Source of the DNA: a virus
Lineage: Duplodnaviria > Caudoviricetes
Strand: one strand, 5' to 3'
DNA: 64,000 bases
IMG/VR virus record: IMGVR_UViG_3300001528_000425
Coordinates: 171,560 to 235,559 of that record
A program made the translations under genes and the position numbers. Positions 1,491 through 60,624 of the stretch are shown here, piece by piece. Positions within the stretch are counted from its first letter, which is position 1. Each line of letters opens with the position of its first letter. Below the pieces are notes generated by a model that made no database searches, had not been told where the DNA came from, and saw nothing but the letters and a program-made list of their open reading frames with translations.

Positions 1491-3944
1491 TTATTTGAGA
1501 TCTTCCGGATCAGGATCTTCTGTCATGTTGTACATGGTAAGAGACACCAAGTCATCGAAAGCAAGTAGAAGCTTGCCACTCGGTGACAGATAGTTATTCA
1601 AAGTCTTGAGATAACCCAAGGCTTCTTCATTGGCTTCCTTACTTAAGATAGGAACCCAGTTGACAGTGTCATAGACGACTACACCTTCGTTAACAACAAA
1701 GACTTTCGTGGATTCCACAAGGAAGTCGTAGACTCTCTGCGGACCGAGAGTAGTGATGTTCTTCGGATAACTCCAGATGATATCCTTATTGTTCAATCGC
1801 TGCCACAGGGGAGTTTCTTTCCCGATATAGTCAGCGTATTGCATCAGTTCATCCCTCTGGATAAATCCTAAAGTCTTGACTCCCGTATAGGTTCTCAGAT
1901 AGTTTTCTTCCTCTACGGTGAGAGGAATAACATCATCTTCCCGATCGTGTACAATGGGAGAGCTCCAATTGTCCGAATCTCCGAATAACGGTTTCCGTTT
2001 GAACACCGGAATCCTTGTGGTTGCGTTCGTATCCTTAGGAGCAATCCGTCGAAGACCTCCAGTATTCTGATCGAATACCGCCAAAGATTCATTGGTAGAA
2101 ACTCCGATCTCACGATTTGCTACCGTACAAGACACAGCTTCGCAATCATCTTCGATTGTCACGCCAGAAATAGGTTCCCAGGAACCTTGGTTGGGACCGG
2201 ATTGATAACTCATGATTTCGCAACCAGGAGCTACATCGAAGACTCTCGCTCCATTTCTGTCGAGTTTGAACGGACCGGTGACCGGAAACTCTTGCATCTG
2301 GATCTCACAGTAGTTCCATCCATCTTTGGTGAGGAACGTCTTATCCTTCAGATTCTTGAGGATCGAATCTTTGTCGAGTTGACTTGCCGAATAATCGGCC
2401 GTCTGCAACTGAGTATACCAAAGATTGGTATATCTCAAGGTTACAGTCGTAGTACCAATAAGGCAGTTCCCATCGAAATCTCCCCCTAACGGCGCAAGTC
2501 GACTTGGGTGTAGAAGCAATGCATCGGTGAACGAACTGTTCAAGATCGGATACTCCGGCATCGTAACTGGTTCAGTTGATCCATTGATCAGTTGAACAAC
2601 TCTGGAAGGTACCGTGGAGATCAGGTGGATCTTCGATACATAGATACTGCCGGCATCCGTTACCGGATATCGAGTTACTGTTCCAGTCTTACCGATCGAA
2701 GACATCCAAGTTGCGATATACAAGATCTCGCAATAGGTGATCGGTCGGAGTCTGGAAGGATCATACAGCAGGTTCATCTTCTCCAACTGTTGTTTCAGGG
2801 AGTTGACATCACGTACAAGGATGATCTGTTGATCCAAGTCATAGATCATGAACATGTAGTAATGTTTCTTATTCTCTGTCTCAACTGTGAGAGGACGGAA
2901 CCTGAAATCAGCATCCTGAAACAAATCGATCATCTTGACAATACCTTCACTGGAGAGTAATCGGTCTTTCTCGGATTCAGTGATCGGCTGATATTCCAGC
3001 TGAAGGGTTTGCGGATTGATCAAACTCACTTGATCAGAACTGGCACTCAAGACAGTACTGAAGAAGAACTGTTTCAGGTTGTAAATGACCAGAGGTTGTA
3101 AGGCTTTGGCTGCTTGAAACAGAGGAACTTTGGTCTCATCGACTTTATGGTACTGCGGATCTTTGGGATCTTTAGCAGCCATAATGGAAGATGCGATCAC
3201 GTTACGAGTTCCAAGAGCAAGTGCACGTGCACCGTACTTCGATTCCAGGAACCCTTTCTTCCCGGTCATCATACTGAGGATGTGAAGATAGATTTCATTC
3301 ACTTTCCTCTGGATCGCGTAATGCACACTGTCGTAGATCGGACGTTGCCAGGCCGAAGGCGGCATAGCCTTACAATTGTTCATCAACGACATGTAAAGGT
3401 TGTTGACAACATCTTTCTCTTGTTTCCCATCGGTGATCCGAATGTCTCGGATACCAGCAGGGAGAACCAGGAATTTGTCGATCAGCAGCCGATCTGGGAA
3501 TTGCAGGATCAGATCGATCTTGTCTTCCCGTTTAAGAGAGGCGTTCTTTCGCCAATTGATTTCTGGGAAGTGAGTGAGGAAGAAAGTGAATCCAGTGTCA
3601 GCTTCTGGATCATCTTCCGAAGCATGGTCGAAGTCACCGAGTTCCTTGTTCCAGGTAGCATATGACTTACCAGACATAATGTCAACATAGAAAGATTTCA
3701 GTGCTTTCAGGTTCTGGAAAATAAGCGGATGAAAGACTTTACAGTTCAGGTTGATCCAGCCGAAGCGAATCAATCGAGCGTTGGTTCCGATCTGTCCGAA
3801 GATCTCCTCAGAGAATAAACCCTGAGGATGGAACATGTTACTGGAAGGCTCACGGATCAGCGGAGAAGTGACCTCAAGCATGTTGTACTTGGCGATCTCT
3901 TTCTCCACATCCATGAGCGAAAGATTAAATGGATCTCTTGCCAT
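1491..3944 (-). CDS. Virion RNA polymerase beta' subunit (phiKZ gp180-like), intein-containing
   Basis: GLFSEEIFG, VLPAGIRD, GKKGFL, TRYP and GGDFDG motifs; start MARDPFNL has a GGAG RBS. Confidence 0.9.
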   Translation of the reverse strand: MARDPFNLSLMDVEKEIAKYNMLEVTSPLIREPSSNMFHPQGLFSEEIFGQIGTNARLIRFGWINLNCKVFHPLIFQNLKALKSFYVDIMSGKSYATWNKELGDFDHASEDDPEADTGFTFFLTHFPEINWRKNASLKREDKIDLILQFPDRLLIDKFLVLPAGIRDIRITDGKQEKDVVNNLYMSLMNNCKAMPPSAWQRPIYDSVHYAIQRKVNEIYLHILSMMTGKKGFLESKYGARALALGTRNVIASSIMAAKDPKDPQYHKVDETKVPLFQAAKALQPLVIYNLKQFFFSTVLSASSDQVSLINPQTLQLEYQPITESEKDRLLSSEGIVKMIDLFQDADFRFRPLTVETENKKHYYMFMIYDLDQQIILVRDVNSLKQQLEKMNLLYDPSRLRPITYCEILYIATWMSSIGKTGTVTRYPVTDAGSIYVSKIHLISTVPSRVVQLINGSTEPVTMPEYPILNSSFTDALLLHPSRLAPLGGDFDGNCLIGTTTVTLRYTNLWYTQLQTADYSASQLDKDSILKNLKDKTFLTKDGWNYCEIQMQEFPVTGPFKLDRNGARVFDVAPGCEIMSYQSGPNQGSWEPISGVTIEDDCEAVSCTVANREIGVSTNESLAVFDQNTGGLRRIAPKDTNATTRIPVFKRKPLFGDSDNWSSPIVHDREDDVIPLTVEEENYLRTYTGVKTLGFIQRDELMQYADYIGKETPLWQRLNNKDIIWSYPKNITTLGPQRVYDFLVESTKVFVVNEGVVVYDTVNWVPILSKEANEEALGYLKTLNNYLSPSGKLLLAFDDLVSLTMYNMTEDPDPEDLK
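1668..2465 (-). mobile_element. Mini-intein (266 aa, no evident endonuclease) in the vRNAP beta' catalytic motif
   Basis: Block A CLIGTTTV follows DFDGN; blocks F/G VYDFLVESTKVFVVNEGVVVYD are followed by Thr+1 (TVNW). Confidence 0.85.
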
Positions 3945-4061
3945 AGAGCACTCCAATGTTATTTATTTAAGCAGTTTGTATAAGATGGCGTGTTCCTGTA
4001 TCTGACCATTCTATGCAGATTTTACTACTACTGTAACGCCCCTTATAAGGAGATTATAACA

Positions 4062-26321: not shown

Positions 26322-28310
26322 TTAGAACCCGAAGTAGCGATCGTTCATTCCTTCACGCATGTCGACCAAAGTTGCCTTTGGATCGGAGAACAAGCCGTCC
26401 ATCCGTTCGAAACTCAACTTAGTAGAGAGCGCTGCTTCATTGATCACCGAAGCCATACCCGCGAAGGATACAGACTGATGAGCATCTTCGATCACAGGAA
26501 TACTGTAGTCGATCGAGCTCTTGATCATAAAAGCTCTAAGCAACATCTCTACATAGAATATTTCGATATCCGTCTTGTTGTACAGGATCTGCGTAAAATC
26601 CTTCAACAGTAACGGAATGGAGTGATAGTCGGCGATCTGCGTCGACAAGAAGTTTTCGATCCTTGTCACGAACGAGACCATGTCGTCGTTCATCACCGTG
26701 TACTTCATGAACGGTTTGTGGAGGTCGAACTCTGCCAACGGTACAGTGACCGTATCGGAAGTGATCTCCAACTGCTTCCAGTACTTCTTCATGTGCATCA
26801 GCGCATACGAAGAGAGATACGGAATAGCCGCTCCATCTTCCATCGGGACTCGTTCCACGAATTTACCATCCATGAGGATATCGAAGAACCGAATCTTGGT
26901 GAAAGACTCCGTGACAGGGAGATTCTTCTGAGTCAAGTCGGTAAGCGTACCGATCGCATCCAGAGGAATCCTGATCTGCATACGGGATAGTTTGTCTGCA
27001 AGAGCCACGTTCCAGATGATACCGTCGTTATGTTTCAGCAGATACTTGAGAGCCGGTACAGGAATATTGTATTCCTTCGACAGCGTGCGAATCAGATGCT
27101 TCGCACTCAAGATCAACTGAGTGATGGCGGCAACCACCTTGGTGGCAGAGAAGACACCGATATGGATGCCCGGTGGGATGAACTTGGATAGATGTCCATA
27201 CATGAACCCAGCACAATGTTCACATACTCCGTCGGTATGTCGACATCCGAACGGACTGAACATCTGTACTGGCTGTGCAACATATTTTCGAATGTTCTCT
27301 CTGGTAAGGATCACCTTGTTCCCGTCGATGCGGATGATCTTCCCAAGATAGTTCTTCATAGAACGCTCAGGGATCGTTACATCCATGAGGACATCAGACC
27401 CACACCATCCAGGATACACCCTCGGTAACTGTGATCCAACCAATCGGCATTTTCGTGCGAAGTACTGGGCACGTTCGATAACTTCAGAGTTAAAGAACGC
27501 ACTCTTCTTCGCACTCAACGCCTCGATAGCGTAATCCTCCACACCGTCAAGTCCTGACATAGCAGAAGACTGAATCACGTGCTGCATCATGATGTCAGTG
27601 ATATCGGAACGACAGCCGTACTGCAAGAACATCTGCGGAAGCTGGTTGCGCTTCAACAGTTTGGTGCTCATGTACGGACGCATCCAGTTGTTTACCAACG
27701 GACCGTCTTTCTCCGCTAACAAGACATGCAGCTGATGATTTAGCTGATCAATCTTCTTCTCAGCGAATGCGGTTCCAAGCTTACCGTCCACCGTACCTGC
27801 TGTGAGATCCTTCAGAGGTTTCTGGGTGAACAACTCAGCGATACTGATTGCATCCATAGTACCTTGATAAGGTCTCAGATACCTATGGATGAAGTTCGCT
27901 AGATAACATTTACCCAAGAAAACCTGCTGAAGGACTTCCAGATAGAACGTATCTTGCTGTTCTCGGAGTTTCAGATCGTTGACATCGTGGATCTTTTCAT
28001 TTTCTCCGGCATAGTGCTTAAGCACCAATTCTTTGAAAATGACACCGAAGCATTTGCCATCGGTTTCATCACTGAACGATGGAATCACGAAGACTCGTTC
28101 TTTGGTGATCGGTTCTTTGAAATACGCATAGACCCTCCAGAATATGGCATTCATGATGATCTTTCTGACAGGAGCGATATACTCGTACTTGTCATTCAGA
28201 ACTACCATGCCGTAGCCGTTATCCTTGTGGTCTTTCATCAGCTGTTCACAGAACTTCGGATCGAGGATCTGTTTCAGCTTGAACGTTTGTGTGACTTTTA
28301 CATCCGCCAT
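26322..28310 (-). CDS. Non-virion RNAP beta' C-terminal subunit (phiKZ gp74-like)
   Basis: YFARKCRL (bridge-helix region), CGS, zinc site CRHTDGVCEHCAG, TQLILSAKH; follows the beta subunit. Confidence 0.85.
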   Translation of the reverse strand: MADVKVTQTFKLKQILDPKFCEQLMKDHKDNGYGMVVLNDKYEYIAPVRKIIMNAIFWRVYAYFKEPITKERVFVIPSFSDETDGKCFGVIFKELVLKHYAGENEKIHDVNDLKLREQQDTFYLEVLQQVFLGKCYLANFIHRYLRPYQGTMDAISIAELFTQKPLKDLTAGTVDGKLGTAFAEKKIDQLNHQLHVLLAEKDGPLVNNWMRPYMSTKLLKRNQLPQMFLQYGCRSDITDIMMQHVIQSSAMSGLDGVEDYAIEALSAKKSAFFNSEVIERAQYFARKCRLVGSQLPRVYPGWCGSDVLMDVTIPERSMKNYLGKIIRIDGNKVILTRENIRKYVAQPVQMFSPFGCRHTDGVCEHCAGFMYGHLSKFIPPGIHIGVFSATKVVAAITQLILSAKHLIRTLSKEYNIPVPALKYLLKHNDGIIWNVALADKLSRMQIRIPLDAIGTLTDLTQKNLPVTESFTKIRFFDILMDGKFVERVPMEDGAAIPYLSSYALMHMKKYWKQLEITSDTVTVPLAEFDLHKPFMKYTVMNDDMVSFVTRIENFLSTQIADYHSIPLLLKDFTQILYNKTDIEIFYVEMLLRAFMIKSSIDYSIPVIEDAHQSVSFAGMASVINEAALSTKLSFERMDGLFSDPKATLVDMREGMNDRYFGF

Positions 28311-29224
28311 TACTTCACCACCACTTCTGCACTGTTCCCTTCAACTTGACGAACTTTGTCAGCTTCCGGTCTGGTATCATACCCGATCGGAGCCATCATG
28401 TGCGTAAAGATGGAGATGTTGTTGCTGGTTTTAATGATGTGATCAGTCTCCATGGGATAATGAGTCACTTGCGTAGGATGTGGGTCGGTGAGAGCAGTTC
28501 TTTCCATCAACTTAACTGCTGATGGAGAGTTGCCGTTCACGCCCATCAATCTCACGATCGTGTAAGCTCCCATGGACATCGTCGACATACAGATCTCATC
28601 TTCACCCAGTCTCTGACAGGTCTGTCCGACTGGAGATTGAGATTTGATGTATTTGCTTGTCGGTTTCATCGGAGTCTCGAACTGATTCCCATAACTGATC
28701 TCCACACAATGCAGCATGGAGGTCGGGATCTTCCCGAGTAACATGAGATGTTTGTCCCCGATGATAGTCTCAGACAGAGTCCTGACTGTTGTCATGGTTC
28801 CATCCTCTTCCCGGACCGTATACGTTAAGGGAGATTTCTTCAATCCATACTTGTCCTTCATGTACAAGATCCACTCTGGTGTGATGTTCTCCATGAACCC
28901 GATCGCAAGCATGATCCCGTCGCGTCGAACCGTTTCCACGAACTCTTCCTTACGGTTGATGGTCGTTTTCTCGTATTCTTCACGAAGTACGGGTCGAACA
29001 TCTTCAATGTATCCCATGATGTATTCATAGGCTTTGTTGATGTCCTTCATCTCGCGTACCGTCTTCTGGACACATCGACTGAGAGCATTCAGGTCTTGTT
29101 CATAGAACTGACCAGGATTCATACGGTTGATCACAGATGCTGTAGTGATACAGAAATCCGCGATAGTCCCATCGTCCGTGCGAGGCATGTATTTCTTCTC
29201 ACGGATATCTGATACGACACCTTT
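28310..29224 (-). CDS. Non-virion RNAP beta C-terminal subunit, exon 2 (gp73-like)
   Basis: Begins KGVVSDI directly after the intron terminal G; SVINRMNPGQ, QRLGEDE. Confidence 0.85.
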   Translation of the reverse strand, partial: KGVVSDIREKKYMPRTDDGTIADFCITTASVINRMNPGQFYEQDLNALSRCVQKTVREMKDINKAYEYIMGYIEDVRPVLREEYEKTTINRKEEFVETVRRDGIMLAIGFMENITPEWILYMKDKYGLKKSPLTYTVREEDGTMTTVRTLSETIIGDKHLMLLGKIPTSMLHCVEISYGNQFETPMKPTSKYIKSQSPVGQTCQRLGEDEICMSTMSMGAYTIVRLMGVNGNSPSAVKLMERTALTDPHPTQVTHYPMETDHIIKTSNNISIFTHMMAPIGYDTRPEADKVRQVEGNSAEVVVK

Positions 29225-31083
29225 CGTTATGTTCAAGAGAACGCGCTACTGTCCTCCCCGCGGCATGACCCGCTCCGCTGCAAGCTTTCCTTGCAGACCA
29301 GACTATATCTCCACCTTCACCATTACGTGGTCAGGTGCACTTCTATTTCCTCGCCGCTTGGCAAGTACAGGGTGGATCAGTCCCTTAGTCGTTGAACTCA
29401 CCTCATGTCGATATACAGGATATATCGATTTAGAGGGCAGCTGCGGATTACCCATTACAGCGATCGCGTCTAGAAAATCCCATCTAGTCGATCATCTCGA
29501 TTTCTTTTACCATACCCAGGTTAATTACTCCTGGCCCCACAGTAATCACGTTTCCGGCTGTGGTTGGTGTATCGAGCTTTAGTGGCTTCCCGTCAATTAA
29601 GAAGTGAATAGTTAAGCATTTCTGCTTAACCAGCCATCAAATCTTTGAGATAGTAAATGGATCTGAAGGTTTACTGTATCGTAACGCTCGTTTGATAAAT
29701 TTCCTATCAACACCCAGCGCTTTCGCAGCTTCCCTCAGCGAATGAAACGTGCGTTCTTCTCCAGTTGCTTTATCAACAACCTTCATCTGAACGTTCTTGA
29801 ACTTGTTTTGTAAAACAGTGGTTGGCCATGCATGAGATGACTTGAACCTAACCCGGAACCGCCCGATCATCTTCTTTCCACCAGTCTTCGCTGCTAAGAT
29901 CAAACTACAGCGAGAGATGCCAACATAAGCTGCAGCTTCTCTCTGGTTGTGAAACGACCGAACATCTCCGGTGTCAGTATCTAGAACTTGTATCACCTTA
30001 GGAACACACTGATCCGTATAGGTAGCAGTATATCCAGGATAACGCGCTTCGAACTCTTCGATCGTCTCCCGTACCGACTTGCAGATATTCCACAAACCGA
30101 AATACTTGACGAACGTTCGAACCCCGTTGAACACAAGTTCCTTACCATCTGGATCAACGACTGTGATGATGTACCTAGATGGTTCCACGTTCACAGTCGG
30201 TCGATCATAGACCCAAGGTCTAGTGTCACCTTCCACCCGTACTTCCCACTCTTCGTTGTACAATCGATTCCCTCTCCAGCTAGCCAATGTAGCAGCTTCA
30301 CGAGAACCTAACCCAAGATATGCTCTTGCTTGTGAGATACTGGGAAATTCTTTGATCTCTCCAGTTTTCGCACTTCTCAAGAAACACTTCGTGGTTGGAC
30401 GAAGGTTGTGGTTGATCGCATGGAGGTTGTTACCTCTGATCGTTGTCCATTCCAGATTACTTGCATGATTGTTAAACTTATTACCATCGAGATGGTTCAC
30501 GATAGTGTAGAAGCCTAACCTTGGGTTATGTACCCAAGCCATGGCAACGAGGATGTGTATCGCTTTACCAATTCGTTTCTGGATGATCGTGTCCATGACG
30601 AATACTTGACGGTATTGCCCACGCAAACCTACACTGAGATGTGCTCCAGTCTTCACATCGATCACGTCTCCATCTATGGAAACCGCAACCGAAGGATACT
30701 CTGGTACGATCCTGTACGTTTCGTCATACATGATCGGTGTCCTGAATTCCACAACATAAGGGAACTCCGGTCTCCGACTGTCCATCCTGCTGTGGAAGAA
30801 GACGTCATCCGGAACAACCGGTACGTATTCTCCCAACCCTAATCTGGAGATTAGGAACAACCATCGCCTGGATCGTTGTTGTGTTTTACAATACATTTCA
30901 ATTGAGACAAGATCTCCTGCCGTTGGCAGATTCACTTCTCTCTTGTTTTCATCAACAATCTTCAAACGGTTATTGATGAAAAGCTTTTCATTCGTTCCTG
31001 GTATCACGTAGTACATAGATTCCTCCGTTTTCAGATTCTATATAATAGTGTACCATCTTCCTTTTTACTTACCTCAAAACGAT
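29225..31083 (-). mobile_element. Group I intron in nvRNAP beta, carrying an HNH ORF
   Basis: Core P AATTGACGGGAA, Q AATCCGCAGC, R GTTCAACGACTA and S GATATAGTC within 29225-29640; splits GRDGx/KGVV; 5' boundary uncertain by about 2 nt. Confidence 0.9.
29637..31016 (-). CDS. Intron-encoded HNH homing endonuclease with NUMOD1-like repeats
   Basis: IHILVAMAW..VNHLDGNKFNNHASNLEW; repeated TGE..F.S..EAA motifs. Confidence 0.9.
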   Translation of the reverse strand: MYYVIPGTNEKLFINNRLKIVDENKREVNLPTAGDLVSIEMYCKTQQRSRRWLFLISRLGLGEYVPVVPDDVFFHSRMDSRRPEFPYVVEFRTPIMYDETYRIVPEYPSVAVSIDGDVIDVKTGAHLSVGLRGQYRQVFVMDTIIQKRIGKAIHILVAMAWVHNPRLGFYTIVNHLDGNKFNNHASNLEWTTIRGNNLHAINHNLRPTTKCFLRSAKTGEIKEFPSISQARAYLGLGSREAATLASWRGNRLYNEEWEVRVEGDTRPWVYDRPTVNVEPSRYIITVVDPDGKELVFNGVRTFVKYFGLWNICKSVRETIEEFEARYPGYTATYTDQCVPKVIQVLDTDTGDVRSFHNQREAAAYVGISRCSLILAAKTGGKKMIGRFRVRFKSSHAWPTTVLQNKFKNVQMKVVDKATGEERTFHSLREAAKALGVDRKFIKRALRYSKPSDPFTISKI

Positions 31084-32304
31084 TGCTCCGTCCCGGCCTG
31101 TAAATTTAAATCCCCTTCCAACCTTACGTTTGTAAGCGTAAGTGATTTCCACGGAAATAAACTCAACCGGTTCTTTCTTGTCGATCAGTTGAAGTTTGGA
31201 ACGAACTCGATTCCTTGGTGCCAACAGTCCGATGCATCTTGTGACCAGAGTATTGAATTCCGGTCGCAATTCATAACCATCCGATTGGACTTTGTCGTAG
31301 ATCGCCAGAATGGCCTGATGATATGCATCGTGTTGTTCTTTGTACTTCACGAATTGCTCATAAGGCCCTTGACGATTCTTCAATCGTTTGTACGCATCGA
31401 AGTTGATGTATACATTGACATCGAGTACTGTCGATCCTGCCGGAGCATAATGACACTGATCGTGCATCTTCTCCGTACGCATCAACGCTTCCGCTGTCAT
31501 GTCGGTAATGAACGTCGTCTTATTCCGTTGACGGAGGCCGACAAGGACTCCATCGGAACGTAACTGACTGCCGATATCCGGGAAGGCTTTATACTCTTCC
31601 AGAGAACCATAGAGGTTCAGAGGAACATCATCTTCTCGGATGTTCAGTTTCATCGTGCCGATCGCAGTGTGCTCATTCTTCTCCGCATATTCATCAGAAA
31701 TCAGGAATGCGTCCTCGGTAACTTCCCATCCACTCAAATAAGCAACTGCTGCATTGGTGCCAAGACAGTAGAGATTACCTTTGTGATTGGGAGATGTGAC
31801 GAACTTGGTTTCCTTGGATACGTGGTTGTTGTTGGTCAGGAGATAAGAATTCAGCATCGTGTTCATGTAGCCAAAGCCATCGTGCAACTGACGATAGTTG
31901 GTAACATCGAAGTAACCGATCTTCTGATCATCTTGTCCAACATAGATGACAGTCATCGTGGGGTTGGTCAACCCATCCGAACTCCAACATGTAGTCTGGA
32001 ACTTCGGTATGACTGCCAAGATGATGATGTCCTGATCACGTCTGGTGTCATCGAATTCATAACGACCGATGATACCTTCGTATCCGGTACATACCATCGG
32101 AGGTTCACATCCATCGACCACCAGAGCTTGCGCGATGTTACTGGCGAACATCATCGCTCGCTGACTTGATACGTACTGCGGAAATGGCAGTAGCAAGGCT
32201 TGTAAGCCTAAGAATTCATACCGCATCTTTAAGTCGGACAACAATCGATTTGGATTATCCCGTCCATAAGGATATCGACTTTTGCCCGTTGCAGCATCGT
32301 CCAT
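31084..32304 (-). CDS. Non-virion RNAP beta C-terminal subunit, exon 1 (gp71-like)
   Basis: SSQRAMMFASNIAQAL, EDAFLIS, GFKFTGRDG (cf. GDKxxGRHG). Confidence 0.9.
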
Positions 32305-55823: not shown

Positions 55824-56459
55824 TCATTTCAACTTGCCGATACGATTCGGGATATCAGTGATATCCATACGATCGCCTCTGAGCTGATCTTCCAAGAAGT
55901 TATCAACCCATTCCCGAGACGCTCTCAGCTTGGACAGTTCATCGAAGTCGTACACAGGGTCATCACTTCGGAACGTATAACCGACCGGACGATCGTTCGG
56001 AATATCCGGATGGTTGAAGTAAGATGTTCCGTTATCCAACAGACGTCCAACCACATCCTCATCCGGGAGTTTACTGGCATCCACACCCCATCCGTAGATC
56101 AGTCCCTGATCATACAGATCCCTGACTTTCGGCATCGTCAGAATCGGAATATGCATGCATGATGGAATATTCTCCAGCGCTTCCTGGTTATCGATCACCA
56201 CGATGGTGTCCGGATGGAAGATCGCTGCAGTTGCCGCATTCAACGCGCTCACCGCAGCTCCATCCATTTCCTGGATCTTCTGAGTGAACGCATCGTATCG
56301 GTTACTGAATCCCATGCTGGAAGCTGATCCGAACAGGACACCTGCCGCATCAGCGAATTGATTATTAAGTCGACTGAACACCGCTTGATTCCCGGAATGC
56401 CCTGTATACATTCCAAGTACCGGTGCAGTCATCACGTCAAGAACTTGCAATACAACCAT
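55824..56459 (-). CDS. Chimalliviridae core protein (phiKZ gp59-like)
   Basis: IPSCMHIPILTMPKVRDLYDQGLIYGW motif; position after the gp55-like gene. Confidence 0.55.
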   Translation of the reverse strand: MVVLQVLDVMTAPVLGMYTGHSGNQAVFSRLNNQFADAAGVLFGSASSMGFSNRYDAFTQKIQEMDGAAVSALNAATAAIFHPDTIVVIDNQEALENIPSCMHIPILTMPKVRDLYDQGLIYGWGVDASKLPDEDVVGRLLDNGTSYFNHPDIPNDRPVGYTFRSDDPVYDFDELSKLRASREWVDNFLEDQLRGDRMDITDIPNRIGKLK

Positions 56460-56657
56460 AAAACTTCTCCTGTAAAGTAACTTGCTACATGATAGTAGCG
56501 TTCTATATTTTAATACTCTGTTGATTCTTCCTAGGATCAGGGGATCACATATGTAATATATGATCGAATCAAGTAAGAATATATCGCAAGCTATGTCGTA
56601 TAAAAAAAGAAAGAAGCAAGGAGAGGGAGCACGATGCTCCCTCTCCTTGTGTTGTTG

Positions 56658-56852
56658 TCAGTATCCTCCGACTACCAACGGATCTCCTTCACCTGCCAAC
56701 CAACGGTTGGCTGCAAGGGAATACTCGTTAGTGAGTTTCACATCGTTGGTTAAACTGTCTCCAGTTCCACCGAGCAATGTAGTCATCGGATGCACTGCCA
56801 TGAACTTGATGACCTCAGCCATCTCTTTCAGAGCAACCCCATAGATCTGATC
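56658..56852 (-). CDS. nvRNAP beta' (gp55-like) exon 4
   Basis: Starts DQIYGVAL after the intron terminal G, supplying the last Asp of NADFDGD. Confidence 0.85.
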   Translation of the reverse strand, partial: DQIYGVALKEMAEVIKFMAVHPMTTLLGGTGDSLTNDVKLTNEYSLAANRWLAGEGDPLVVGGY

Positions 56853-57389
56853 CATTGTGTTCACTGTGTTCGCTAATCACAGCAGTGTCGTTTCAGACAC
56901 ATCTCTAGCTTTCACTAGACGACCAGGTATATCCTGGAAGCGTGTATAATGATCCATATACACGGTGCAGACTATATCACCATCTCCTCATGATCGTATC
57001 TGTCCGAGTACCAGGATTCGAACCTGGGACGTTCTGCTCCCAAAGCAGACGCGCTACCACTGCGCTACACTCGGACAGATACTACCATCAAGGAGACCCC
57101 TACCGTTACGGGATCGCATGATCCCTCTCGATTTGATGACTCAAATACATTTAGTCGTTGGGCATTTAGGAACATCTCTGTTCCATTTAGCTGCTGAAGA
57201 CCCATTTGCTGATAACATCGTTGCTCAAATGCTATCAACTAGTCCTTAGGATTTAACCATAGACCATCTCCACACTTGTTTCTACTTTCGTTCCTATGCG
57301 ATAAGTTGCATAGGCAGTGGAGCTATTAGGGATTGCCAGCGATTAGATAAGTTTGCTACGCAGATCGCTCTACGTAGGGAGCAGATCAC
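56853..57389 (-). mobile_element. Group I intron 3 (ORF-less, tRNA-containing) splitting DFDG/D
   Basis: P1 GGAGT/GCTCC, P AATCGCTGGCAA, Q CTTCAGCAGC, R CAACGACTA, S GATATAGTC. Confidence 0.9.
57003..57074 (-). tRNA. tRNA-Pro(UGG) embedded in intron P8; no encoded CCA
   Basis: CCGAGTG/TACTCGG acceptor, GCGC D-stem, TCTGC-TTTGGGA-GCAGA anticodon arm, CCAGG-TTCGAAT-CCTGG T-arm. Confidence 0.92.
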
Positions 57390-57410
57390 TCCATCGAAGT
57401 CAGCATTAGG
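57390..57410 (-). CDS. nvRNAP beta' micro-exon 3 (PNADFDG)
   Basis: CCT AAT GCT GAC TTC GAT GGA between two intron cores. Confidence 0.9.
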
Positions 57411-58669
57411 CCTAATGGTCAAGTGGAATCGCAACTTCCACCGTGTGTGCTATGACACACCCTCAGTGTTTCCAAAGAGGAGCAGACTATATCAGACATC
57501 TCGAATATCACGTGTTTATCCGAGATCCTTCTCCGTTTCAGCATCCTTGCGGATGGTGGTAGCTTGTACCACACGCCATATGCTTGCGCCCTACGTCCCT
57601 GTTGGAACTAGTCGTTGAACACATCGTCTACATGAGACGACTTCGTTGCGATGATTGAGCCAATCCTTTTACTTTTTATATCCATCATAGCTTACCTCGC
57701 GGTTACTATTGTGGCTAAAAGGCTCTAAGGCTCTTCCCGCAATTAGAAGAAGTACGCACATCCTATCACTAAGATGTGGGCCCGGTGATTGTTTTATCAG
57801 TTTCCGAAGATCTTCGTTTCTTATACCTAGAATAATCAATTGGTGTTAAACGAATCGGTTTCTTATACGGAATGCCATATTGTTCAGCTATATGCCGATG
57901 TGTCCCGTGTGCAACGATATGTTGAATCGCTGTAACAGGAACATTCAACTCTCGACTAATTGCTGTCAATTTCATTCCATCCTGAATTCGTTTACATACC
58001 GCATGTACTTGCTCTTCTGTCATAGCTGACTTACGGAGCCCGTGTATCCTGGCATGTAGATGATTATCGTAAGCCGAACACCATTCCAAGTTATCAGCTG
58101 CATTGTTAGCTTTGTTGCCATCAGTGTGATTGACTTCTAATAACTTGTTAGGATTTGGTACGAACGCAAGAGCTACCAGTCGATGGATCTTCACCGACTT
58201 AAGTGATCCGGAACCTGTGTATCCGAATCTTAGATAAGTGCAGTAATAACCGCTGTTGTTTGGTGCTCCTGTTATCATCTGGTAGGTACGTTTGTTCCAT
58301 ATCCTACCATCCCGTAAGATGATGTAATTCGGGAATCCTAGACTCTCCAAACTACATTGATCTTCCGGAGGGATTTCCTTCAATTCATTGTGAAAATATT
58401 TCCGCCATAGATAATCCGTACTGAAAGTTTTAGACTTATTATCTTTCCATACGAATACAGTTGGTCCGAAATGTTTTAATTCTCGACCACTACGTTCATC
58501 TACAACGGTCTTATCTTCATAAAACCTGATGAAAGGATACCCTTCTTCTTCGAGTAATACTGATGCCTGTTGTTTCATTGCACTTCTTACCTCTGGCTTA
58601 TTAGAGTTAGGCTGTCTTCCGACAGCCCTCATCAAGCCTTCGGAAGACAGTGTGCAACGACAATCGTTG
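57411..58669 (-). mobile_element. Group I intron 2 with HNH ORF
   Basis: Canonical GCT|...G|CCT junction (SISA/PNADF); IGS GGCTG; P AATTGCGGGAA, R GTTCAACGACTA, S GATATAGTC. Confidence 0.9.
57769..58578 (-). CDS. Intron-encoded HNH homing endonuclease
   Basis: IHRLVALAFVPNP..VNHTDGNKANNAADNLEW and C-terminal HTH; start reassigned to MKQQA. Confidence 0.88.
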   Translation of the reverse strand: MKQQASVLLEEEGYPFIRFYEDKTVVDERSGRELKHFGPTVFVWKDNKSKTFSTDYLWRKYFHNELKEIPPEDQCSLESLGFPNYIILRDGRIWNKRTYQMITGAPNNSGYYCTYLRFGYTGSGSLKSVKIHRLVALAFVPNPNKLLEVNHTDGNKANNAADNLEWCSAYDNHLHARIHGLRKSAMTEEQVHAVCKRIQDGMKLTAISRELNVPVTAIQHIVAHGTHRHIAEQYGIPYKKPIRLTPIDYSRYKKRRSSETDKTITGPTS

Positions 58670-58775
58670 AGCTGAAATGCTGAGCGGAGATAACCCAATA
58701 GAGTCATCTTCGATCTCTGGTTTGATCTTCGTTGCAAAGAAGAGTTGTATGGCTCCATGTCGCAACGTTGGATTT
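58670..58775 (-). CDS. nvRNAP beta' exon 2
   Basis: NPTLRHGAIQLFFATKIKPEIEDDSIGLSPLSISA (cf. RxPTL..SIQ); 5' boundary uncertain by 1-3 nt. Confidence 0.88.
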
Positions 58776-59168
58776 TGCAGTGTTCGGCGTAGGCGCTAAC
58801 TACACCCGCATCGTTTCAGATACTGCTCCGCCTTTCGGTCGGACGACCAGGTATATCCTGGAAGAACTCTTGCGAGTTGGCCAGACTAGCTCATCACCAC
58901 ATCCCTTATGAGACAAGGTGTGTAACGTTTGGAGCCCGCTTGGTGCTCTACTCTCCGTCCGTAGATAGGAGATAGTCGTTGAACTACCGTTAGGTAGCTG
59001 CTGAAGACCCACTGCCTAGTCCATTTAGGATTTAACCTTGTGGACATCCGTATACTTGTTTCTACTTTCGTCACTCAACCAGCTAAGGTTAAGCTACACG
59101 GCTTTAGGGATTGCCAGCAATTGGTTACATGATCGATCCTGCTTTCGCAAGAAAGGGAGCTATCCTTA
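58776..59168 (-). mobile_element. Group I intron 1 (ORF-less)
   Basis: P1 GGGAGT/GCTCCC, P AATTGCTGGCAA, Q CTTCAGCAGC, R GTTCAACGACTA, S-like GCTAGTC; paralogous to intron 3. Confidence 0.88.
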
Positions 59169-60397
59169 CTCCCGAGTAAAACAGGCAGACCCTTGTAAGG
59201 GCATTCATCCATCAGTCTCTGGATCACATCGTACACATCCTGATCGAACTCTACCAATGCCCTCGCATGCTTCTCATAAGCATCCGGATAGGACATGTGA
59301 TAATGCCGAACAAGGAAGTTGATGATCTCCAGCTTCCACTGGGCAACGCCGATCCTCCATGGGAGGTGACATTCATCTGCCTTGTGTTCTGTTACGATCG
59401 GAACGATAACAGCACGGAATGTGTTGTTCAACCTCGAAGCCAACAGGGATTTCCGGATGAACCCATATTTGCTGACCAACTTGATCTTGGTGATCTTCTC
59501 AACATAGTTGAGATAAGATTTGTACACGTTGTAGCTGTACTGCTCCAAGTAGTTTCGGTTGGCTGCACTATGAGCGATTGGGTTATGCCTGTAGTTGTAG
59601 ATCGCGCTGGATAACTCGATACATGTTTCGAGGATGGACGTAGACACATCGTCGTTGTAGGTCAACGTTCCACTCTTGGTCAAGATATGCAGAGCTTGAT
59701 TCAGTACCGGAACATGTCTGATGAACATTACGTTCCTGTACGTATCCACGAATTCCTTGATGAACAAGTTCTTCTTGGATTTGGCTCCGGTGTTTTGGTT
59801 GAGGAAATAGTTGATGATGTTATCGAAGTTCTCGTAGAAATAGGCTGGACCTTGTCCCAAGATACTGCCATAGGGTTCTGGAAGTTCACTGTCAACATCG
59901 AGGAGAAGATCGATGATCTTCTTCTTGCGTTTGACGCAACCCATCCATTTACCCAAGATCCGATAAGCTGCAGGATGCAGCATCGGAGGCATGAACTCTG
60001 GGATCTCCAGCCATGCACGGAACTTGATCTCATCTGCGAAGGCGTCGCGAACTTCCGTGTTGCAATATGGACAGATCGTACCTTTGGCGAAGTTACCTTT
60101 GGTTCGTTCACATTTGCAACTGGCGATGAAGTTCAAGTTGCTGTCGCTCTCTTGGAACAACATCTTCTTGATCGTCTCGATAGAGTTGTTCGCGACGTCT
60201 ACACCGTCCAACTCTTGGCCACATGGAACGATCATCGCATTCGGATCTTGATGGAATTCCCTATCGAAATCGAACAACCGTAACTTCGTCACGGTTGCAT
60301 GTTTCTTTGGGTTACACCATCGATCCGATGAGGCGTAATACGCCCTGACGATCGCTTCTGCGTCAACGTTCGGCTTGAATATACTACTGAACCACAT
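59169..60397 (-). CDS. nvRNAP beta' N-terminal subunit (phiKZ gp55-like) exon 1
   Basis: AGGAGG RBS at MWFSS; zinc site CKC..CPYC, KYGFIRK, RAVIVP; ends GLPVLLG. Confidence 0.88.
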
Positions 60398-60432
60398 AAG
60401 CCTCCTGCTGATAAAAATAAGTTCTAGGAAAA

Positions 60433-60470
60433 GGGTAAGGTGATGGAATATGTATTCCATCACCTTACCC
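60433..60470 (-). terminator. Intrinsic terminator after chimallin and the tRNA-like RNA
   Basis: Hairpin GGGTAAGGTGATGGAATA/TATTCCATCACCTTACCC followed by TTTT. Confidence 0.75.
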
Positions 60471-60481
60471 ACGGAATTAAG

Positions 60482-60624
60482 AGGAATAGGCAGGACTCGA
60501 ACCTGCACCAGTTGCTATCGCTAACAACCGACTTGTCATTCTCCGAGCTTAAGGTGTATATCTCGGGATTCTCCAAGTATCCGGGGGACCGGCCCAGCAC
60601 TCTATCCAGTTGAGTTACTATTCC
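60482..60624 (-). ncRNA. tRNA-like RNA with ~75-nt expanded variable region
   Basis: GGAATAG/CTATTCC acceptor, ACTC-AACTGGATA-GAGT D-arm, GCAGG-TTCGAGT-CCTGC T-arm, non-canonical anticodon loop. Confidence 0.8.

Follow-up and report, generated by a model that had tools for sequence, protein, structure and literature searches.

An apparently undescribed family of Asp-terminated inteins in the metal A motif of phage RNA polymerases accompanies an encoded Asn in place of the third catalytic Asp

Group I introns have been reported in the RNA polymerase (RNAP) genes of AR9 and phiKZ-like phages, and the Chy RIR1 intein ends in Asp. Among other class 1 inteins without the usual C-terminal Asn, the CIV RNR and Pab/Mma PolII inteins end in Gln; a last residue of Asp, Gln or Glu is assumed to leave the mechanism, a path of four steps, unchanged (PMC4031507). 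The Tko CDC21-1 intein works without the block B His (cited in PMC4031507), a residue that is also dispensable in the PolB16 intein (PMC10189870). Each of these features is already known separately: a terminal Asp or Gln, independence of the block B His, and the presence of inteins or introns in genes of phage polymerases. Here we analyse an intein found in a gene for a beta'-like RNAP subunit of a tailed phage (Caudoviricetes), in a 64,000-nucleotide stretch of DNA, called the window below, that spans positions 171,560 to 235,559 of the IMG/VR record IMGVR_UViG_3300001528_000425. The intein ends in Asp, and the residue before it, at the place of the third Asp of the DFDGD motif, is Asn. The corresponding Asp of the NADFDGD motif has been called universally conserved and ligates Mg A directly, but not Mg B (PMC13198411). 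Our literature searches turned up neither this intein family nor any catalytic triad in which an intein is linked to a change of Asp to Asn, and the family is apparently undescribed.

The gene lies at 1491..3944 on the minus strand of the window and encodes 817 amino acids, the N-terminal part of a beta'-like subunit, with an ATG at 3942-3944 as the likely start and the stop codon at 1491-1493. The reading frame (1491-3956, minus strand) is stop-free across its whole length, and the translated protein is identical to a database protein, P0002. The exteins match PHROG 2986, 'RNA polymerase beta subunit' (E 9e-135), and tblastn places them at about 30% identity to the RNAP subunits of phiKZ-like jumbo phages. 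The record is a complete genome of 235,559 bp with terminal repeats, and holds one copy of this subunit. A megablast search with the gene against cultured phages gave no match, and neither did tblastn with the intein alone, so that no cultured phage in the searched collection carries this intein.

Translation of the junctions reads LAPLGGDFDG-N497/C498LIGTT…NEGVVVY762-D763/T764VNWVPIL, the slashes marking the two splice sites. The N-extein (2466..3944, minus strand, like all features of this gene) is colinear with intein-less homologs of 543-572 amino acids and ends in the metal A motif (2466..2480), which as encoded is D-F-D-G-N, with two Asp rather than three; its last residue, Asn497 (codon AAC, 2466-2468), is position -1. 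The intein itself (1668..2465) is 266 amino acids long, opening with block A (CLIGTTTV, 2442..2465), in which Cys498 (TGC, 2463-2465) is Cys1, and closing with block G (EGVVVYD, 1668..1688), which holds the penultimate Tyr762 (TAT, 1671-1673) and the terminal Asp763 (GAC, 1668-1670). The 58-residue C-extein (1494..1667) begins with Thr764 (ACT, 1665-1667) as the +1 nucleophile; Thr also follows the motif, as DFDGD-T, in nearly all intein-less alleles. Between the termini, the block B region (GVSTNESLAVF, 2073..2105) contains Asn622 and, at the usual place of the block B His, Ser624 (2085-2087), while block F (VYDFLVESTKVFVVN, 1689..1733) contains Asp744 at F:4 (1725-1727) and Lys751 (1704-1706) in place of His F:13. 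Residue equivalences in blocks F and G were taken from a hidden Markov model alignment to the Ssp DnaB intein (1mi8), and the register of block B from the sequence pattern, not from structural superposition. An initial annotation, made from the letters alone, had read an insert in the DFDGD motif with Asn at -1, a penultimate Tyr and a terminal Asp, which translation and codons reproduce exactly.

The same annotation had taken the insert for an intein, and fold and profile comparisons agree that it is a genuine one; we consider it probably active. An AlphaFold2 model of the insert, built on 86 relatives and including short flanks, has a predicted local distance difference test score (pLDDT) of 91 and a predicted template modelling score (pTM) of 0.88, and shows the HINT fold. 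Foldseek returned 47 matches in the PDB at E<=1e-3; the listed ones, which include the PolB16 intein, are inteins or HINT domains of related kinds (BIL, Hedgehog). The top matches, the cysteine-less Aes123 PolB1 intein (9hth) and the TFIIB mini-inteins (5o9i), share the fold (E 4e-9 to 7e-8, template modelling score about 0.70 on the target), but are only 11-12% identical to the window intein, and in them Ser1, the canonical His residues and the terminal Asn are all present. A profile of the family found PI-SceI (8e-7) and the Ssp DnaB intein (4e-6) in the PDB. The window protein scored 15.1 bits against Pfam Intein_splicing (PF14890; cut-off 35.8), which its relatives P0131 and P0188 exceed, at 46.7 and 46.0 bits. 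The insertion is in frame and at a conserved host site, where 68 colinear intein-less homologs continue straight through DxDGD-T.

A Pfam search of the window protein found no LAGLIDADG domain, whereas relatives of 390-490 amino acids carry LAGLIDADG_3 (PF14528); because it has no endonuclease domain, we regard the window copy as a mini-intein no longer able to home. The larger relatives resemble in this respect the PI-SceI, PI-PfuI and Tli/Pho VMA inteins, which also bear LAGLIDADG domains, from which the window copy differs both by this absence and by its non-canonical splice-site residues. Measured against class 1, the nucleophiles are in place (Cys498 at 1, Thr764 at +1), as is the block F Asp (Asp744, in VYDF). 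The Thr-x-x-His of block B is absent: the window has S-T-N-E-S in a register set by sequence pattern, and the Thr position is variable in the family. Tyr762-Asp763 stands where a penultimate His and a C-terminal Asn are usual, Asp as the last residue being rare among inteins but on record (PMC4031507). The marks of class 3, a non-nucleophilic residue 1, Cys at F:4 and a WCT motif, do not describe this intein, which has Cys as residue 1 and Asp at F:4.

A word-based search with the whole protein yielded 120 homologs, and a profile built from four mini-inteins, run against 1.84 billion representatives, gave 206 matches. All matches with a readable N-terminal junction sit in the D-x-D-G motif of an RNAP beta'-like protein; some of the hosts are beta-beta' fusion polymerases of 1,700-3,100 amino acids with Pfam Rpb2 and Rpb1 domains. 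Junction residues were counted in the 97 members, clustered at 50% identity, that have both junctions. Written as residues -1/1, these are N/C in 86, D/S in 8, D/C in 2, E/C in 1 and N/S in none. Position 1 is thus Cys or Ser in 97/97, and the last intein residue is Asp, again in 97/97. The penultimate residue is aromatic in 93/97 (Tyr 60, Trp 27, Phe 6, other 3), and +1 is Thr in all members except one with Ser. From the single E/C member, P0220, which has an odd C-extein and may be damaged, we drew no inference.

The pattern of an Asn before the intein and an Asp at its end, which the initial annotation had proposed to seek in homologs, is therefore the rule, in 86 of 97. Its description as an exact swap of Asn and Asp did not survive the census: the terminal Asp is constant whatever the -1 residue, D/S and D/C members included, which makes it a constant of the family and not the displaced Asp of the extein. 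Asn accompanies Cys1 in 86/89 and Asp accompanies Ser1 in 8/8, and on this census the covariation partner of Asn(-1) is Cys1, not the terminal Asp. It is the roughly 11% of members with other junctions (D/S, D/C or E/C) that bring this covariation to light.

A second count, by alignment column over 86 members, found Gly(-2) and Asp F:4 in 86/86, Cys1 in 78/86 and Ser at the column of the block B His in 85/86. Asn at B:8, two residues ahead of that Ser, is present in 76/76 N/C members, and the D/S members have Asp there in 6/8; Lys occupies the position of His F:13 in 75/76 N/C members. As aligned, then, the active site is rewired, with Ser (block B), Lys (F:13) and Tyr or Trp (penultimate) at the places of the three canonical histidines. 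We found no conserved His at the junction-block or NX positions examined in the family, and in particular no consistent His at the K/R-x position of D/S members, where Ser1 inteins can have an NX-motif His (PMC10189870). In the larger Ser1 clade (P0242, P0246, P0248, P0259, P0260 and P0261) the block B Asn has become Asp and the F:13 Lys is lost. Since block B Asn and F:13 Lys change in the D/S clade, several active-site positions switch along with the -1/1 pair. The window copy retains every invariant or near-invariant residue of the family.

Set against described inteins, the family combines features that have been seen apart. With the class 1 inteins that lack a C-terminal Asn (PMC4031507), the window intein shares the HINT fold, Cys1, a hydroxyl or thiol nucleophile at +1 and a cyclisable last residue; it differs from them in that its family has the terminal Asp fixed in at least 97 clusters, does without the three canonical histidines, and has Asn in place of a catalytic Asp of the extein. 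With PolB16 OarG (PMC10189870; PDB 8cpn/8cpo) and Tko CDC21-1 it would share activation of the N-terminal junction without the block B His, but each of those two is an isolated exception in which a penultimate or NX-motif His and the terminal Asn are retained, whereas the family has an invariant Ser at the block B position.

Decay has to be considered as an explanation for so unusual an element. The window copy has lost its endonuclease and scores poorly as an intein in Pfam. It might be a pseudo-intein in decay, the allele might be dead, or the Asn or the Asp might stem from a sequencing or assembly error, such that no active polymerase is matured. We consider this very improbable, given an open frame with all family-invariant residues retained, in the sole copy of the subunit in a complete genome, a highly confident AlphaFold2 model, and the same junctions in 86 independent clusters. 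A read error at the junction codons, which the initial annotation had named as fatal to its reading, is excluded in practice because N/C…(Y/W/F)D/T recurs in 86/97 independent family members, from other metagenomes.

Homology sets Cys498 as position 1, Asp763 at the position of the terminal Asn and Thr764 as +1, and from this we infer the canonical four steps. Cys498 would form a thioester at the carbonyl of Asn497, the N-extein would be transferred to Thr764, the intein would be released by cyclisation of the terminal Asp763, where the usual residue is Asn, and an O-to-N shift would complete the peptide bond. With the canonical class 1 register, the primary ligation product would be DFDGN-T, in agreement with what the initial annotation had derived for standard splicing. 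A shift of register by one residue would be a way out of this result: excision of Asn497…Tyr762 would join Gly496 to Asp763 and give DFDG-D-T, a canonical motif, in all 97 members whether N or D comes first. The insert DNA can equally well be written as AAC TGC…TAT between the Gly and Asp codons, and the second RNAP gene of this phage, described below, is interrupted exactly between Gly and Asp (G^D). The chemistry speaks otherwise. With Cys at position 2, no N-to-S shift through a five-membered ring can take place at the Gly-Asn bond, cleavage of the Tyr-Asp bond would need a cyclisation of which Tyr is incapable, Asp is not known as a +1 nucleophile, and both the fold and the alignment of blocks F and G with Ssp DnaB place Cys498 at position 1 and Asp763 at the position of the terminal Asn. 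Among the three outcomes that the initial annotation had put forward (a shifted register, deamidation or an Asn-tolerant polymerase), this is the least likely, and we give it hardly any weight.

The Asn is found with the intein and nowhere else that we looked in this polymerase. Full-length intein-less homologs read D(F/Y/H)DG-D-T, with the third Asp in 68/68. Scans of IMG/VR with back-translated DNA patterns gave 43 matches to ADFDGN-T, none of them in an RNAP context (unrelated proteins or chance), and 28 to ADFDGN-C, of which 12 were in an RNAP context; ADFDGD-T had at least 107 matches, most of them, judged by eye and uncounted, in polymerase-like contexts. Intein-less relatives that naturally encode DFDGN, the observation that the initial annotation had said would undo its case, were accordingly sought and were found neither among the 68 homologs nor in any RNAP-context match in IMG/VR.

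The association holds on phylogenetic grounds. On a tree of the exteins calculated with the -1 residue masked, well-supported branches require at least 16 gains or losses of the intein, and the best tree has 19. Asn tracks the intein in 13-14 independent pairs and opposes it in 0 (p about 2e-4), the other 2-3 pairs involving D/S or D/C inteins. Three junction states occur in almost identical exteins: P0082, without an intein, has the junction codons GGG GAC/ACG, P0031 (N/C) has GGA AAC/TGC…TAC GAC/ACA, and P0020 (D/S) has GGG GAC/TCT…TAC GAC/ACA. Between P0007 and P0082, the N-extein differs at 280/1,485 nucleotides (19%) and the C-extein at 4/168. With one extein divergent and the other nearly identical, P0007 is a recombination mosaic that has the intein at its centre, the structure that homing with co-conversion would be expected to leave. 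On the tree of the intein splicing domains 3 changes of junction state suffice, D/S arising twice and D/C once; because so few are needed, N/C is an old and stable state of a large, host-switching radiation.

An explanation for the Asn codon is suggested by work on the -1 position. Asp(-1) triggers premature N-terminal cleavage in many inteins, and in a scan of all 20 residues at -1, Asn was among those that cleave slowly (PMC11842431). For this reason we view the codon as an adaptation of the element, co-inherited with the Cys1 intein, and not as a trait of the polymerase. An Asp carboxylate beside the Cys1 thioester would be a liability, leading to off-pathway N-terminal cleavage; the oxyester of Ser1 relatives, being less reactive, would tolerate the Asp(-1) that these relatives retain. 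The mature polymerase would then coordinate metal A with Asn, through its amide oxygen, in the place of the third ligand; this would come at some cost, unless the Asn is later deamidated. This account, in which splicing in the canonical register gives DFDGN-T, Cys1-thioester cleavage imposes the Asn and the polymerase works with it, is the one we tentatively prefer, while holding that it could well be wrong.

Several observations weigh against it. In other polymerases, replacing Asp by Asn at metal ligands lowers activity by orders of magnitude. A functional polymerase with DFDGN would be without precedent, and the intein-less relatives never show Asn. The D/C members P0044, P0047 and P0262 indicate that Cys1 does not absolutely rule out Asp(-1). 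Endonuclease-less copies such as the window intein retain Asn even though a single A-to-G change would restore Asp, and this makes more sense if the Asn is no burden to the polymerase. Finally, the residue equivalences drawn for block B depend on a sequence pattern.

These difficulties lead to the alternative that maturation re-creates the Asp, the amide of Asn(-1) being lost during or just after splicing, so that the intein edits a catalytic residue of its host. In one possible route, Cys1 may close a succinimide ring by attack of its backbone nitrogen on the side chain of Asn; this imide would activate the scissile bond and take over the function of the missing block B His. The difference between Asn and Asp would be erased, and N/C and D/S precursors would converge on DFDGD-T. 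The restriction of Asn to intein-bearing alleles, at a position that ligates Mg A directly, is readily understood in these terms, as is its retention in immobile, endonuclease-less copies. The residues found at -1 (Asn, Asp and one Glu) are all imide-forming, and there is an invariant set of non-canonical polar residues near the junctions (Asn B:8, Ser B:10 and Lys F:13) that might serve such a reaction. Spontaneous deamidation at Asn-Thr or Asn-Cys is slow, on a scale of weeks, and yields mostly isoAsp; the imide route requires additional steps to free the side chain from Cys1; and the same Ser and Lys are also present in D/S and D/C members (P0020, P0032), and are hence not specific to Asn. 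Editing of an extein residue is also not known from any intein. In favour of the route, peptide ligation by way of an aspartimide has a known example in the protein legumain (PMC4506564).

The comparative data are expected under both readings. Retention of Asn is favoured by its simplicity and by the lack of a precedent for an extein-editing intein; conversion is favoured by the absolute conservation of Asp elsewhere and by the Asn kept in immobile mini-inteins. On balance we regard conversion as a serious but doubtful possibility. Editing of the RNA instead, from AAC to IAC, was also considered. Bacterial TadA editing uses a TACG loop context, which the site, inspected by eye, does not have, and this candidate was dropped.

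Group I introns in phage RNAP genes resemble the window intein in being self-splicing and aimed at the most conserved RNAP motifs; they differ in that they splice RNA and leave the codons intact, while the intein alters the encoded catalytic residue. Both kinds of element seem to be represented in this genome. A second beta'-like RNAP gene (55824-60508, minus strand), which belongs to a separate PHROG, 2987, appears from homology to a phage PCH45 protein to be split into four exons on the minus strand. The pieces recognised are …KGLPVLLG (about 59165-59171), QNPTLRHG…LSISA (58777-58670), PNADFDG (57410-57390) and, from 56438, DVMTAPVLG…MYTGHSG, the last by a short local match; tblastn of the last-exon open reading frame (ORF; 55827-56438) against phages was without match. 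Of three group I signals from an Rfam search, all on the minus strand, one exceeds the threshold (57462-57843, 61.9 bits) and two are sub-threshold (58863-59188, 27.3 bits; 56954-57381, 25.8 bits). An HNH-like ORF (57769-58758) lies within the region of this gene. A tRNA-Pro(TGG) at 57002-57074 (minus strand; Rfam 68 bits, also called by ARAGORN) is inside the gap of about 950 nucleotides at NADFDG^D, and would be nested in a putative intron of the second beta' gene.

The initial annotation had claimed that both RNAPs of this phage are interrupted in the same motif by different self-splicing elements. The interruption stands, as exon homology has NADFDG ending at 57390 and the D beginning at 56438; the type of element at G^D is less certain, the group I signal there being sub-threshold. 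In other phages, orthologous beta' ORFs (P0014, P0038, P0040, P0061, P0067, P0084, P0085, P0090, P0102 and P0116) end inside the motif, at …LGGD, …GAD or …DFD, and those ending in …GAD or …DFD continue into non-coding sequence, as introns would lead one to expect. Two or three additional sites within DFDGD may therefore hold introns. The motif is a hot spot for self-splicing elements.

Elsewhere in the window, a further group I intron is predicted at 29278-29664 (minus strand; Rfam 52.4 bits), between ORFs 28310-29236 and 31069-32304, which look like parts of a beta-type RNAP gene. A 459-residue endonuclease-like ORF (29637-31016) adjoins this intron. A 143-nucleotide tRNA match at 60482-60624 (minus strand; Rfam 39.3 bits), absent from the ARAGORN calls, is long for a tRNA and possibly interrupted.

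Each of the outcomes that we still consider plausible for the intein in the metal A motif overturns something held as fixed. If the Asn is kept, a multisubunit RNA polymerase functions although Asn has replaced one of the three 'universally conserved' Asp residues that bind the catalytic Mg A, and, if true, this would illustrate a selfish element forcing a substitution in the active site of its host. If the Asp is regained, intein chemistry goes beyond excision and ligation to rewrite a residue of the extein, with the gene encoding DFDGN and the mature polymerase carrying DFDGD. With at least 97 clusters at 50% identity the family is a large one; it is also old and occurs in very different phage RNAPs, so that it is not a one-off oddity. 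N/C, D/S and intein-less alleles in almost identical exteins amount to natural controls, and an Asp-ending intein without catalytic histidines would extend the protein-engineering toolbox.

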